From an uncultured cyanobacterium (lineage in GTDB: Bacteria > Cyanobacteriota > Cyanobacteriia > Phormidesmidales > Phormidesmidaceae): DNA of 64,000 nt. Positions 388 to 54,564 of the stretch are shown piece after piece. How positions within the stretch are numbered: the first letter of the stretch is position 1; every line of letters starts with the position of its first letter. Location: positions 1,120,001 to 1,184,000 of the forward strand of contig CAWBZI010000001.1 of NCBI GenBank assembly GCA_963793265.1. The letters are read 5' to 3'. The notes under the pieces were generated by a model. That model saw nothing but the letters and a program-made list of their open reading frames with translations. It did no database searches and was not told the origin of the DNA. The translations under genes were made by a program, and so were the position numbers.

Positions 388-1641
388 TCAGTCGTTATCG
401 AACAGGTTAATTAAAAGATTGAGCGGGTTGATAAAATCAACTACTGTTCCTAGTATGCCGCGAATGTTGGTATTGCGAGAGTCATAGCAGGCGATCGCAT
501 CATCCGGCATCAAGAACGGGTTGTCTTCAACCGAGGGCGTCGCATTGTCTATCACATCAGGAATGCTGTACTCCGAGGTAATCACCTCGCCTGTTTCGGT
601 GTCAGTTTGAATAAACAAAGCGCGCCGGTTTGCGTTAGTAGATGGCGTACCCCCCACACATCTAGCTGACACTAGCGCCTGAGCTAAAGTAGCACCGTAT
701 GCAAAAGAGGCCACGTTGACATCGCTGCTGCCTTGCAAAGAGCTGCCCCCGCCCGGCTGAGTCACATTAGAGACATACAAATCTACGCTGTCTGGCGTGA
801 TTTGAGAGGGCTTGATCAAGTCTGTTTGCAGCACCCCTGCGTTTGGCACCACAATCTGATCGCCTGCAATCAGCGGGAAATCTGTCACGGACGTGCCATT
901 AAAGATTCCAGAGAGATCGACATCGACCGCCTGTCCGCCTCTAACAACCTGCACCCTAGAGACATCAGCGTTAGGCCGCACGCCGCCAATTGCCTTCAGC
1001 GCAGAGGTTAGATAGCGCTCAACGGGGTAGTCGCCCGGCAGTGAAACCGATTCGCCTTCGTCATTGACGCCTTGAGCATCCACCGAAACTAAACTCTCTT
1101 GGGAGAGCAAAATTCGACCCGGCTTGAAAACCTGGCCAGCTACGGCGACCTGAACGGGCGCGTAGTTTAGAACTTGAACGCTGACTCTGAGCTGACCGGG
1201 TAGAAAAAGCTGCTCGGCTAGGAAGCGATCGCGCAATCGCGCCTGAACCTCAGCAGGCACCAAGCCTAAAACTGGCACAGGCGCTAAGAATGGAATTTCT
1301 AAATCGCCTGCGAAGTTAACCTCATACTCGCCGGTAAACTCTTCACCGCCAATACCTGGCACGGTCAGTCTGAGGCGATCGCCTGGCGATAGGGGAATGC
1401 GCTGTTGGCTAATAGCAGGCAGCGGATTAACCGCAGGCGTGGGGGTAGATACCGGGCGCACTAAAGCAGGGCCGTCTTCAGCCTGCTGCTCGTCAGTGAG
1501 ATCGGGAAGCCCTTGAGCAAAACCACTGGTTGCTGAGAGTAAAAAAGCTGGAATAGATGCCAGCAAGATAGCCGCTTTAGTCATGGTTTTGCCTGAAGTG
1601 ACTGCGCTTAAAAAATACATTGGGCTTCCTATTACCTCCAC
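388..1641 (-). CDS. Polysaccharide biosynthesis/export protein (Wza-like, Poly_export plus SLBB domains)
   Basis: LSPGDRLRLTV, GEYEVNFAGDLEIPF, VAVAGQVFKPG, ALKAIGG and LIAGDQIVVP motifs; signal peptide. The true start may be 1620 or 1584. Confidence 0.8.
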   Translation of the reverse strand: MEVIGSPMYFLSAVTSGKTMTKAAILLASIPAFLLSATSGFAQGLPDLTDEQQAEDGPALVRPVSTPTPAVNPLPAISQQRIPLSPGDRLRLTVPGIGGEEFTGEYEVNFAGDLEIPFLAPVPVLGLVPAEVQARLRDRFLAEQLFLPGQLRVSVQVLNYAPVQVAVAGQVFKPGRILLSQESLVSVDAQGVNDEGESVSLPGDYPVERYLTSALKAIGGVRPNADVSRVQVVRGGQAVDVDLSGIFNGTSVTDFPLIAGDQIVVPNAGVLQTDLIKPSQITPDSVDLYVSNVTQPGGGSSLQGSSDVNVASFAYGATLAQALVSARCVGGTPSTNANRRALFIQTDTETGEVITSEYSIPDVIDNATPSVEDNPFLMPDDAIACYDSRNTNIRGILGTVVDFINPLNLLINLFDND

Positions 1642-4310: not shown

Positions 4311-5009
4311 TTAAGCAGCCACTAATGCCAACTTAAGCAACCCTTCAAACAGCGCTAGGCCATCAGTATTGCCTAGCGCTTTGTCGGCCGCGCGTTCGGG
4401 GTGAGGCATCATACCCAAAACGTTACCAGCTAGGTTGCAGATGCCCGCGATATTGTTCAGCGAGCCGTTAGGATTAGCAAGTTCATTGGCGTTGCCGCTG
4501 GCATCACAGTAGCGAAAAAGCACCTGATTATTGTCTTCTAGCGCCTTAAGCGTATCGGGCGCAGCGTAGTAGCAGCCTTCACCATGGGCAATCGGCAGCG
4601 TAATTACCTGATCTTTTTGATAATTTTGAGTCCAAGGGAGATCGGTGCGCTCTACTTTTACCGGCAGGCGATCGCACACAAAATGCAAGTCTCGATTGCG
4701 CACTAGCGCCCCCGGCAGCAGCCCCATCTCCGTAAGCACCTGAAACCCATTACAAATGCCCATCACGAACTTGCCCTGGTTTGCGTGCAGGGCGGTTGCT
4801 CGCATCGCTGGAGAAAATTGAGCGATCGCCCCACATCGCAAATAGTCACCATAGCTAAAGCCGCCCGGCACTACCACCACGTCTACATCAGCCAGATCGC
4901 CTTCTTCGTGCCAGATCATTCGCACCGGCTGATGCAGAATATCGCGCAGAATGTAGGCAATATCGCGATCGCAGTTCGCCCCCGGAAAAACAATCACCCC
5001 AAACTTCAT
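4311..5009 (-). CDS. purQ: Phosphoribosylformylglycinamidine synthase subunit I
   Basis: [27 protein letters not shown] and GMMPHPER motifs. Confidence 0.97.
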
Positions 5010-51017: not shown

Positions 51018-51437
51018 CTATGCTGACCAGTCCTCAATACTCAAATCTGTTATACGCTCAAAATCTTGGCGGTTGCGTGTAACGAGTGTTGCTTTTTGAG
51101 CCAAAGAAATTGCTGCAATCTTGAGATCTTGTGTACCCGTCCGAAGCTTTCGGGCTAAAAGGACTTGAAAATAAGCCTCTGCTTGAGTGTCGTATTCTAT
51201 AATCCTAAAGCCATCGAGAAACTCTAACGTTCTTGCGAACCAACGATAGACATAAATTCTCTCTTGAGGCTTACTAGCCTTGCGAATCTGCGCTAAACGA
51301 CCTCGAATGAGTTCTTCAGCACTAATCACAGTGATAGCGATCTGAGTAGGTGGAATTGTCAGCAGCTTTTGGCCGATAGGTTCATGGCCACGCTGATACA
51401 GGCTGAGATGATCGCTATCTAATATGTAAAAAGGCAT
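51018..51437 (-). CDS. vapC: PIN-domain (VapC) toxin
   Basis: YILDSDHLS, ISAEE, GTQDLKIAAI and LVTRNRQDF motifs. Confidence 0.88.
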   Translation of the reverse strand: MPFYILDSDHLSLYQRGHEPIGQKLLTIPPTQIAITVISAEELIRGRLAQIRKASKPQERIYVYRWFARTLEFLDGFRIIEYDTQAEAYFQVLLARKLRTGTQDLKIAAISLAQKATLVTRNRQDFERITDLSIEDWSA

Positions 51438-51449
51438 TAAAATACAGCA

Positions 51450-51761
51450 TCACTCCGCAAGAGGATCTGCTTCGCGATCAATTTCTTGACGATATGCTGC
51501 AATTTCAGCTTGCAAATCCTCAAATGTTGGGTCGTCCTTGAACCAACCAAACTTATCAATCCATGGATTTCCCGTCTGTGTTGGCAGCGGAATCTCTACC
51601 TGAATAACTTCCACCTTGTTCGTTAAATAATCAAGGAGGCGAGATTTTAGTTGGGCAATAGCAGCGTCTCGACTGCTTTCAGTCACGATTACTTCGGGCC
51701 ACTCTTTAGCGCGAGCAATATATCTATCGTCTTCTCTACTAAGAATAACATCGTAAATCAT
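51450..51761 (-). CDS. Antitoxin with HicB-like N-terminal fold
   Basis: YDVIL..EDDRYIAR..EWP.....SRDAAI N-domain and NPW..FGWFKDDPTF C-terminus; upstream of a PIN toxin. Confidence 0.7.
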   Translation of the reverse strand: MIYDVILSREDDRYIARAKEWPEVIVTESSRDAAIAQLKSRLLDYLTNKVEVIQVEIPLPTQTGNPWIDKFGWFKDDPTFEDLQAEIAAYRQEIDREADPLAE

Positions 51762-52062
51762 GGCTTATCTCTACTTTATTTTTGGTTATGACCATCGACC
51801 TTTCTATCGATGCTAGAAAGACCTATTTTCTTTAGCTCGCTGCTGAAGACGCTGCGCTAGTTGAGGCTCGATAGATTTTAGGAGGATGTTCGTCATGATG
51901 CAGGAAAGCTCAGAGCAGCTTGTAGTTAGAAGGATATTAGGCTTATAAATTTGAAAAGAACGCTAAGCCTATTGTTGACTTTACTTGAGCCACACGTATG
52001 AAGGTATTGTACAGCTTTCGGTGAGCGGAAGGTGGCGCTTTTAAATAGACCGAAGTCCTCAG

Positions 52063-52251
52063 GCGCTTCGCGCAGGAAAGAAGAGTAGAGGGAAAGAGGG
52101 TAAAAGAGAAAAGTGTAACTTAAGTCTTGGGCGCAATAAAACAGACTACTCGAAAACCGAAGCTGCTGTTGCGGAAGTCGCGCGAATTCCTGTCGCGATC
52201 GGCCGCGCGGCAGTCCGTCGGGAGGCTGAACCACGAACCGCCCCGCAGCAC
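52063..52251 (-). other. Candidate DGR variable region plus downstream pyrimidine tract and GCGC-GAA-GCGC hairpin
   Basis: VLRGGSW-FSL-P-TD-CRAA-D-R-D-RN-S-RD-F-RN-SS-F-GFRVVC with NNC/NNT codons at the variable sites; hairpin at 52063-52073. Confidence 0.7.
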
Positions 52252-52968
52252 TTTATTCGCGTCAGCAGATTCCCAAACACTTCCATCAGCAGGTGCGCCT
52301 TTATAAGACTCATGCCACCCGTCGAGGCACCATTCCCATACATTGCCGTGCATGTCATGTAAGCCAAAGCCATTAGACGGAAAGCTGCCTACGTCTATCG
52401 TTGTCTCGCGAAATTCGCCCTTTGGCCCTTTGCTGTAGTTGCATGAATAAGTTTCGTTTTGATATTCCCAGTCTGTCCCTCGGTAGTTTTCTAAATTGGT
52501 TGTGATAGTCGGCCCAAAGTGAAAAGGCGTTGTTGTCCTCGCGCGGCAGGCATATTCCCACTGCGCTTCGCTGGGTAAAGTATACGACGCTCGTTTTGAG
52601 CGGTGCGATAGCCGTTTACAAAACTCTACCGCCTCCTCCCAGTTAACTCCTTCAACCGGACGTTGTGCACCTTTAAAGTATGCCGGATCTTTCTCCAAGT
52701 CGCGCTCTATCTTATTCATCGCTGCCACCGCCGCCCACTGCGCTTGAGTCACCGCAAGCTTGCCCATCCAAAACTCAGGCATCCTCACCTCATGCTGCGG
52801 ATACTCATCCTGACTAGCGCCTTCTTCTCCTGATGCTGCCCCCATTAAAAACTTTCCACCCGGAATCCGCACCATTTCTAAGCCGATATCATTGCCGAGC
52901 GCTTCAGTAAAATGCTCCGCCGTACCTGGAATCTTCTCAACCTCTTCGCCTTGCTCATTCACTCGCAC
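52120..52968 (-). CDS. FGE-sulfatase (C-type lectin fold) domain, probably the 3' part of the caspase gene
   Basis: EMVRIPGGKFLMG, LPSEAQWEYACRA, GLHDMHGNVWEWC, RGGSW and GFRVVC motifs. The frame stays open upstream to about 53042 with no ATG. Confidence 0.9.
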   Translation of the reverse strand: MRVNEQGEEVEKIPGTAEHFTEALGNDIGLEMVRIPGGKFLMGAASGEEGASQDEYPQHEVRMPEFWMGKLAVTQAQWAAVAAMNKIERDLEKDPAYFKGAQRPVEGVNWEEAVEFCKRLSHRSKRASYTLPSEAQWEYACRARTTTPFHFGPTITTNLENYRGTDWEYQNETYSCNYSKGPKGEFRETTIDVGSFPSNGFGLHDMHGNVWEWCLDGWHESYKGAPADGSVWESADANKVLRGGSWFSLPTDCRAADRDRNSRDFRNSSFGFRVVCFIAPKT

Positions 52969-53029
52969 GCTCTCAAAGCTGAAGGTAGGGTATTGAACAA
53001 CTTTCTCTAAAGTCTTGTATGCCTCCGGC

Positions 53030-54160
53030 TCAGTCGTCCCGATTCAGGAACATTACTCTCATCCGTTCTCCCAAAACCTTCTTTTCTTCAGCTTGCACAT
53101 CTTTATCGGTAAGGCCAAACGTTCGCTGCAAGCTTTTGAACGACTCAATTACATCATCGTCAAAAGGATAGGCCACCGCTTTTTCTTCTTTCAAAGCTTC
53201 AGCATAAAACGCTAGATGTTTCAGTTTTTCTCTATGCGGCCTCAACACCTCATCGATAATCTCTTTTACTAGCTCAGGCGTAATGCCAAGCTGCGGTTGC
53301 CAGTGTTGCACCAACTCCATGCGAGCCGCCGCATTAATTCGCCCATTGCGAGTCATTTTCTGCACTCGCTTGCGATAGCGCTGCACATTATCCACCTGAG
53401 CTTTTGCCACCCAAATATTTTCGCCTGCCTGCCCGTTAAAGATGGTAGGCTCCATCGTCGGTGCCGCCCCAATCACTCGCTTTTCCACATAGTCGTGCCA
53501 GTGCCGCACCGACACAAACTCACGCCCATCTAGCGCCGCGCCTCCGGTTTGCAATCCTTCTACCAGATAGCGAGTATATACAGACAGCTCCTCACCGATC
53601 TGCTCTAGGGCATAGCGCCGAGAAGTAGCCGCCGTCATCACGCACCAGCCCTTACCGCCTAGCTGCGCTTCCACGTCCATGCTGCCGTCATCCATTGTCA
53701 AAAAGCCATCGGCAAAGGCTGCGCCGAAACAACAGTCTAAAACAACAACTTTACGCTCAGCACCGCAGATTCTCAGTACGCCCTTGATAAAATCTGCTTC
53801 AACGGCTGTACCCGTGCTAAGCTGGCCGGTTTTGTGCAGCTTTGATTGCGCGGTTGTGAGATAAAACTTGTCTGTAAGATCCTTAATGCCATGGCCTGTG
53901 AAGTACAGGAGGGCCAGGTCATCTTTGCGAAGTGACTCAAATGTGTCGCTGATGCGCGATCGCATCTCCCCCACATCCGGGTTAATCAGCGACACCACCT
54001 CAAACCCACCAATAGCAGCATCACCCAACACCGCCGCCATCGCCGCCACCCCCTTAGCAGGACATTGCAACGAAGGCAGTCCCTCGCCATAGCTTCCTAC
54101 ACCAATAAGCAGCGCAACTTTCCTACCCGCTTTCTCTGACATACCTACTTCAGCCAACAT
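53030..54160 (-). CDS. Caspase-like peptidase C14 with helical linker
   Basis: KVALLIGV, YFTGHG (catalytic His), VLDCCF (catalytic Cys) and SVYTRYLVEGL motifs. Confidence 0.9.
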   Translation of the reverse strand: MLAEVGMSEKAGRKVALLIGVGSYGEGLPSLQCPAKGVAAMAAVLGDAAIGGFEVVSLINPDVGEMRSRISDTFESLRKDDLALLYFTGHGIKDLTDKFYLTTAQSKLHKTGQLSTGTAVEADFIKGVLRICGAERKVVVLDCCFGAAFADGFLTMDDGSMDVEAQLGGKGWCVMTAATSRRYALEQIGEELSVYTRYLVEGLQTGGAALDGREFVSVRHWHDYVEKRVIGAAPTMEPTIFNGQAGENIWVAKAQVDNVQRYRKRVQKMTRNGRINAAARMELVQHWQPQLGITPELVKEIIDEVLRPHREKLKHLAFYAEALKEEKAVAYPFDDDVIESFKSLQRTFGLTDKDVQAEEKKVLGERMRVMFLNRDD

Positions 54161-54177: not shown

Positions 54178-54564
54178 CTAGTCCTTAAGCGCCTGATTCA
54201 GGCTTCGTACCTTTTCCTCTACCGCATCAATATCCTGTATCCGTACGCCCTTTATCTCAATTTTGCGCCCATCCCGCTCTATCAAAATATCTATCGGCTT
54301 CCCCGGCAGTCGCTCAAACACTTCCTGCAATGCCACCTTAATGCCCTCACCCGGAATCTCAGCCGTAATCACACCCCACAGCCAGGCTCCTACCCCCATA
54401 CCACCCTCTGGCACATCAGCATCCGACACCCGCTCTACTGTTTCTACCGCATCTACCCGCCGCAGCTCCTTCAGCAGCGTTTGCGTTAGTGCTTCCTGCT
54501 GAGCCTCAGGCATATCGCGATCAGCCTCGCGCCAGTCAACGGTGAGCTGTACAGAATTAGACAT
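54178..54564 (-). CDS. EACC1-like effector-associated protein
   Basis: 128 aa; acidic N-terminus, LT..L..EL, PEGGMG followed by a hydrophobic WLWGVI segment, and a C-terminal beta region GRKIEI; ends 17 nt upstream of the caspase. Confidence 0.65.
   Translation of the reverse strand: MSNSVQLTVDWREADRDMPEAQQEALTQTLLKELRRVDAVETVERVSDADVPEGGMGVGAWLWGVITAEIPGEGIKVALQEVFERLPGKPIDILIERDGRKIEIKGVRIQDIDAVEEKVRSLNQALKD

Follow-up and report, generated by a model that had tools for sequence, protein, structure and literature searches.

At the 3' end of a minus-strand gene for a C-type-lectin-like domain, the 64-kb stretch of DNA from an uncultured cyanobacterium that we analysed (hereafter the window) carries a run of codons that looks like the product of a diversity-generating retroelement (DGR). 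The question raised by this locus is whether the region is being diversified at present by a retroelement situated elsewhere, as the initial annotation proposed when it labelled the region a remote target, or whether it has inherited the traces of a retroelement that is gone. We consider, with a probability of roughly four in five, that the locus is an orphaned, or fossil, variable region (VR) of a cyanobacterial DGR, whose adjacent cassette would have been deleted, and which would, by virtue of that deletion, be frozen in one state.

Open reading frame and Pfam searches of the window place the region in a set of three co-oriented minus-strand frames: an EACC1-like ORF, a Peptidase_C14 ORF and an FGE-sulfatase ORF. 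The last of these (52120 to 53043), which has a C-type-lectin-type fold, matches PF03781 at 178.8 bits, exceeding the cut-off of 23.3 and covering profile positions 4-254 of 255. Its 307 codons stand open over 52123-53043, with a stop codon at 52120-52122, and the first canonical start in the frame, a GTG at 52968, lies within a conserved segment. The minus-strand sequence quoted in the initial annotation is exact, and falls inside this frame. Among sequences in the PDB, the frame matches PvdO (9e-29) and Treponema denticola TvpA (PDB 2Y3C), with which it shares the FGE-type lectin fold (E = 5.8e-18 over residues 151-301). TvpA is itself a DGR variable protein, and is a lipoprotein without a caspase domain. 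Unlike that of the window, its DGR is present in its genome, according to passages of Wu et al. (2018, PMC5758913).

Upstream of the lectin-like domain lies the orthocaspase ORF (53030 to 54160, minus strand; PF00656, 53.4 bits), which shares 55-71% identity with the N-terminal halves of fused orthologues and corresponds to the N-terminal part of the ancestral fusion protein. In the window, this fusion gene is split by a frameshift at 53033 to 53043: the stop codon of the caspase frame is at 53030-53032, while the FGE frame, in a different phase, is open from 53043, the window having one base more than all related contigs in a GGG run at 53038-53040. The orthologues in relatives are single ORFs throughout, those compared at this site having 669-685 aa, and all five environmental contigs that cross the site, drawn from four metagenome runs, are one base shorter at 53036 or 53038, which joins both frames. 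The extra base, missing as it is from all five, is therefore private to the window assembly, and is either an assembly error at the GGG run or a real strain-private break.

A small EACC1-like gene (54178 to 54564, minus strand) stands 5' of the caspase gene, its match to PF19953 reaching 21.9 bits for a cut-off of 23.6. Orthologues of it lie upstream of the target in three genomes of the same genus (G012, G003 and G034); the EACC1 profile gives 20.3 bits, again for a cut-off of 23.6, with the upstream ORF of G012, and zero matches in the other four upstream ORFs of relatives examined. The arrangement is reminiscent of the EACC1-caspase two-gene conflict system, prevalent in actinobacteria and sporadic in proteobacteria in the account of Kaur et al. 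(2020, PMC7159879), where a small 5' gene likewise precedes one whose protein begins with a caspase and ends in a variable domain, an order that is kept in the congeners. The caspase and the variable C-terminus are represented here by the Peptidase_C14 match and by the FGE fusion, which is present in the orthologues and frameshift-broken in the window. The window departs from that system in that its EACC1 match lies under the Pfam cut-off, and in that an FGS C-terminus is absent from the list in the relevant passages of the published description; the same paper links FGS domains and DGRs in cyanobacterial conflict systems. Such a layout would be a predicted sensor-protease conflict or signalling module, and the caspase-lectin protein probably has a sensor function; in passages of Dore et al. 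(2024, PMC10907252), such targets are interpreted as antigen sensors.

Whether the codons at the end of the FGE frame are the work of a DGR can be judged against congeners that have one. From a DNA search of 60 relatives, we fetched the same-genus loci with paired matches about 1.8 kb apart on one contig, the second copy of each pair covering only the part equivalent to 52142-52250 of the window. In G003, G011, G002 and G029, the caspase-FGE gene is a single ORF (488-685 aa) followed by bAvd (PF22296), a reverse transcriptase (RT; RVT_1, ~355 aa) and a template repeat (TR), and the TR/VR pairs of these four genomes have 11-17 mismatches at TR adenines and 1-2 elsewhere; by these sequence features, the four cassettes are bona fide DGRs. 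The RT of G003 (L037, G003:C103 6382-7472) is in two overlapping frames of 287 and 112 aa, with a TR/VR pair that is still clean, and its split reflects either decay or an assembly error. Two other FGE genes of that genome, on G003:C136, were considered as remote targets of its template and set aside, with 12-14 non-adenine mismatches in 105.

The known lineage that comes closest to these cassettes has been described under several names, as that of Vallota-Eastman et al. (2020, PMC7517822), as the 'Lineage 4' of Wu et al. (PMC5758913) and as the clade 5E of Dore et al. (PMC10907252), going by extracts of the three sources. Passages of PMC7517822 report that cyanobacteria have remote targets, variable proteins of the orthocaspase-CLec type and a paralogue in which remnants of TR-VR homology survive. 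With the orthocaspase-CLec DGRs of those passages, the window shares a VR at the 3' end of an FGE-type lectin behind an orthocaspase, and its congeners share the bAvd/RT/TR cassette and the adenine-specific TR/VR mismatches; unlike them, the window genome is without RT, Avd and TR, and its gene is split by the frameshift.

In an alignment with the four TR/VR pairs, the stretch homologous to the TRs of congeners, at 52127 to 52248 on the minus strand, forms the 3' end of the FGE/C-type-lectin frame, with an adenine-mutable span from about 52161 to 52230. The window differs from the TRs at 12 of the 24 columns that have an A in all four, as against 2 of the 58 invariant non-A columns (Fisher p = 2.1e-6); on the same columns, the four true VRs of the congeners differ at 9-16 of the 24 and at 0 of the 58. 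Eleven codons are AAC or AAT in all four TRs, and in the window all eleven are NNC or NNT (TTC, AGC, CTC, GAC, GAT, GAC, AAT, TTC, AAC, AGC and AGC). Nine of these have been altered at the first or second base and none at the third, and the third base of each is that of the G003 template. The initial annotation had read all template Asn positions as NNC or NNT, which holds for these eleven codons and fails for a TCG at 52185, which it had counted as variable and where the templates of relatives do not have AAY. The closest orthologue, in G012, is 80-82% identical to the window in the VR stretch and differs from it at 8 of the 11 AAY-derived codons, with 5 of 30 differing among the other codons, four of them by one base only.

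Measured against any one TR, the window has 14-23 non-A mismatches (for G003, 14 at adenines and 14 elsewhere), and as these are about as many as the adenine mismatches, the window's own template is not among the four; the TRs differ among themselves at 7-29 non-A positions. The adenine footprint is accordingly one of columns invariant among the four TRs, and not of a comparison with the window's own template. Could it have arisen in a gene with no DGR history, the NNY codons being due to ordinary divergence of a conserved FGE C-terminus? The RGGSW...GFR motif is indeed common to the whole FGE family, and the non-DGR paralogues of this genome have it too. However, those paralogues have neither the codon pattern nor the flank, whereas the region in the window has the flanking elements specific to DGRs. 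Moreover, ordinary divergence would strike third positions first, and the changes here are in the first and second bases of template-AAY codons, with the contrast between adenine and other columns given above. We give this explanation next to no credence. With substitutions at template-adenine positions relative to homologous templates, a place at the 3' end of a C-type-lectin/FGE gene, a GC-rich boundary and a downstream inverted repeat, the window VR is, by all that its sequence indicates, a genuine DGR variable region by descent. To that extent the initial annotation, which had recognised a DGR-type VR with cyanobacterial target-site elements, is borne out, since TRs lying beside RTs in congeners differ from it preferentially at adenines.

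The elements that flank the VR can be defined in some detail. In relatives, TR/VR homology ends at a GC-rich boundary resembling an initiation-of-mutagenic-homing-type (IMH-like) end (52127 to 52137, minus strand), where, at 52127, a G that every related TR and VR has is replaced by A, one of the two changes at invariant non-A columns. Between the stop codon and the hairpin runs a polypyrimidine (CT) tract of ~40 nt (52074 to 52113, minus strand), alignable in relatives, and after it comes a GCGC-GAA-GCGC mini-hairpin (52063 to 52073, minus strand) with a 4-bp stem and a GAA loop, the target-site inverted repeat of this DGR lineage. Tract and hairpin are both present as the initial annotation had placed them. 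In stability alone the hairpin does not stand out from chance (16 of 200 shuffles are at least as stable; z = -1.5 for the DNA fold), and since its own fold is not significant, its weight lies in its conservation, which is beyond chance. A GCGCG(A/T)AGCGC element follows the CT tract at six congener loci (G003, G011, G002, G029, G034 and G067), four of them with a full DGR; G012 has no hairpin, and G031 has an AT-rich one at the corresponding place.

The same can be seen in a survey of 73 homologue loci, 66 of them under cyanobacterial names, in which a hairpin was defined as a GC-rich stem of 4-6 bp without mismatches that closes a G..A loop of 3-4 nt. Such a hairpin lies within 160 nt past the stop at 23 of 71 loci, and at 9 of the 13 that have a DGR RT within 6 kb; the controls gave 1 of 69 at +400..560 and 2 of 73 within the gene, and in 200 shuffles the mean was 0.6 and the maximum 4. 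Its loops are GAA or GTA in this lineage and GTTA or GTCA in other genera, and its distance past the stop is 46 nt in the window and 51-68 nt in most surveyed loci. GNA-triloop mini-hairpins of DNA are unusually stable. As for the tract, a pyrimidine content of at least 75% at +5..+50 past the stop was found at 35 of 73 loci and at 10 of the 13 RT-adjacent ones, with 2/71 and 0/73 in controls, and the window has 89% C+T over this interval.

The best-known counterpart is that of Bordetella phage BPP-1, for which passages of Guo et al. (2011, PMC3240598) describe an IMH and a GC-rich hairpin/cruciform, with a GRNA tetraloop and a stem of 7-10 bp, 4-34 bp downstream of the VR. In both cases, the VR has a GC-rich end and is followed by a GC-rich inverted repeat whose loop is of the G..A type, and stems vary while the structure is kept; in contrast to BPP-1, as those passages present it, the lineage considered here has a stem of 4-6 bp, either a GNA triloop or a GYYA tetraloop, and a spacer that is longer and filled with pyrimidines. 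Full-text literature searches, whose results were judged in part by titles and abstract openings, returned no description of a pyrimidine tract at DGR targets. Together, the CT tract and the mini-hairpin define the target site of this DGR lineage in concrete terms that can be put to the test.

If the VR is genuine, where is the retroelement that wrote it? The genome searched amounts to 5.68 Mb in 7 contigs, 98.97% complete and not closed, and what the initial annotation had stated of the 64-kb window, namely that it holds no RT, avd or template repeat, is true of the rest of the assembly as well. The check that it had suggested, a BLASTn search of the genome with the VR for a non-coding copy near an RT, returned only the VR itself, at word sizes of both 11 and 7. 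An adenine-tolerant ungapped scan of both strands of the 7 contigs, which forgives mismatches where the genome has an A and for which the random mean is ~61, found nothing closer outside the VR than a placement with 28 non-A mismatches in 114.

The protein-level searches agree. A PF00078 search found a single RT in the genome, of 560 aa and with RVT_1, Intron_maturas2 and HNH domains, at G000:C3:33431-35113 (L009 1345-3027); as a DGR RT it was rejected, being of group II intron type (maturase, HNH) and having no TR. This gene adjoins a large P-loop-like gene. Four congener RTs (one a partial frame) used as tblastn queries matched only this same RT, at 24-26% identity, while three Avd queries gave nothing on the genome below E = 1.5 and the bAvd profile PF22296 reached E = 0.55 at best (13 bits). 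An Avd-like four-helix-bundle gene (PF05635) at G000:C2:374047-374463 (L016 1429-1845) was also discarded, since its neighbours on either side are an hsdS-like and an hsdR-like gene of a type I restriction operon. In the stretch 3' of the hairpin, which holds PIN and antitoxin genes, tblastn detected no remnant of avd or RT. The VR and its flank had no match in a phage collection, and the VR had three weak plasmid matches (72-74%), in Gloeothece and Acaryochloris. An unannotated stretch of the plasmid NC_014534.1 of Gloeothece verrucosa PCC 7822 (472654-472771), with a 72% match to the VR, may be a template repeat.

A remote target implies a working DGR elsewhere in the genome, and as none was found, that part of the initial annotation is unsupported. 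One might still suppose that such a DGR sits on missing DNA, on a plasmid or on a phage, and diversifies the VR in trans. The assembly is in 7 contigs, the IMH-like end, CT tract and hairpin have all been kept, and remote targets are common in cyanobacteria, making up 76 of the 121 diversified genes in the figures given in passages of PMC7517822. However, five kinds of search of a nearly complete genome yielded no TR, RT or bAvd, there is no phage match, and the weak plasmid matches are in other genera.

Environmental contigs also bear on this possibility. Near-identical contigs from four metagenome runs in two studies, one run being perhaps the window's own source, were aligned to 51700-53400. 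One contig of run X1, over 51700-53029 (1330 nt), has 4 differences from the window and none in the VR; a contig of run X3, over 52149-52299, has no differences; and a contig of run X2, over the full 1701 nt, has 28, a single one of which is in the VR. That sole difference, at 52223, is in the middle base of an AAY-template codon, a TR-adenine position, and would be in keeping with continued activity. Against this, the VR is identical in contigs of the two studies, whereas the flanking caspase part is far more variable, one X1 contig having as many as 19 differences over 292 nt. At the level of contigs, which in Logan drop rare variants, the four runs show no sign of VR hypervariability. Diversification in trans is, in our view, very unlikely, and we conclude that the initial annotation was right on the ancestry of the region and wrong on its present activity. 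It had proposed to abandon its reading should template and RT be missing from the genome or close relatives; the genome has neither, but the close relatives have both.

The distribution of these parts within the genus suggests how such a state could come about. VR-like DNA (E <= 1e-8) is present in 20 of 45 other genomes of the genus, and a DGR-clade RT (E < 1e-140) in 8 of the 45, absences being less sure in the many assemblies that are fragmented. Laid side by side, the genomes make up a series: the cassette is full in G011, G002 and G029, the RT is in two frames in G003, avd is truncated in G067, and the cassette is cleanly absent from the window genome, G034 and G012. In the four genomes with a cassette, it begins directly after the same hairpin, and the similarity of the window to the DGR-bearing loci stops just past this hairpin. 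In G067 (L119, G067:C28 ~4424-4880), VR, tract and hairpin are followed by only about the first 60 avd codons. The 8-kb locus has neither RT nor TR, and the genome lacks an RT of the DGR clade; this is a truncated DGR at an intermediate stage of decay, and points to deletion of the cassette. G012 and G034 are also without a cassette, and similarity ends within the CT tract in G012 and just past the hairpin in G034, as in the window, differing breakpoints that suggest repeated, independent losses.

Under the orphaned-VR reading that we favour, the ancestral gene would have coded for a fusion of an orthocaspase with a C-type-lectin domain of the FGE type, behind an EACC1-like gene, with a bAvd/RT/TR cassette directly past the hairpin as congeners still have. 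This cassette would have copied its template RNA with errors at adenines, and the resulting cDNA would have replaced the last ~120 nt of the gene, rewriting 11 Asn (AAY) codons of the ligand-binding face. The cassette would then have been deleted, with a breakpoint just 3' of the hairpin, where an unrelated PIN toxin-antitoxin pair now lies. This pair (51018 to 51761, minus strand), an antitoxin-like ORF at 51450-51761 and a PIN-domain ORF at 51018-51437 (PF01850, 26.9 bits), sits where the congeners have avd, RT and TR. A PIN gene, unrelated to that of the window, also follows the hairpin in G034 (L043 5081-5919); the two PIN modules may be a coincidence, or may be fillers of the deletion site.

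That the cassette was lost, rather than never present, is the probable course of events, and the lost cassette was probably adjacent rather than remote, a point for which the orthologues compared are only 55-74% identical. It could alternatively be argued that the gene was, in an ancestor, the remote target of a DGR elsewhere, and that this distant cassette was lost with no local deletion. The surroundings of the module do differ between the window, G012 and G034, which suggests that it moves, and the patchiness of DGR RTs in the genus (8 of 45 genomes) would suit such a history. Nevertheless, the position of the cassette right after the same hairpin in four congeners, and of the truncated avd of G067 at exactly that place, speak for a local deletion, and we regard loss of a distant cassette as quite improbable.

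The cis elements and the lectin frame remain intact, which fits both a recent loss and a target that could still be used. Perhaps the orphan VR is a maintained landing pad, and not debris; we consider this unlikely, if less so than the alternatives above. In such a scenario, genomes without a DGR would retain the IMH-like end, the tract and the GNA-loop mini-hairpin because the genus gains and loses cassettes, and an incoming cassette with a compatible template could restart diversification, given that a cassette is present in 8 of 45 other genomes and that there are at least four deletion breakpoints. Were this true, the CT tract and mini-hairpin would constitute a lineage-specific target-recognition module, of which our searches found no description.

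A parallel to the orphaned VR is found in Nostoc sp. PCC 7120, whose all3226 is described in passages of PMC7517822 as a paralogue that retains traces of TR-VR homology and has no RT nearby. Like the window gene, it is a VR-bearing lectin gene without its own cassette, an after-state of diversification; unlike the window's assembly, in which no DGR was found, PCC 7120 is credited in these passages with two DGRs elsewhere in its genome. The same source raises the idea that components of diversification are perhaps removed once a variant has been selected. The locus in the window is a DGR target after loss of the retroelement, alongside congeners at earlier stages, and this within-genus series should help to address the question of whether cyanobacteria, as those passages suggest, shed the mutator after a variant has become fixed. 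Beyond the decay series, the CT tract and the mini-hairpin, the locus is a typical case of a system already known, and it carries a warning for annotators: a VR-like codon pattern is not the same as ongoing hypermutation.

Finally, the same genome contains a second caspase-FGE paralogue (G000:C6:598595-600607), for which no CT tract and hairpin are present downstream. The gene is intact and encodes 670 aa, ends in a degenerate VR-like C-terminus and is possibly a fossil target of greater age.
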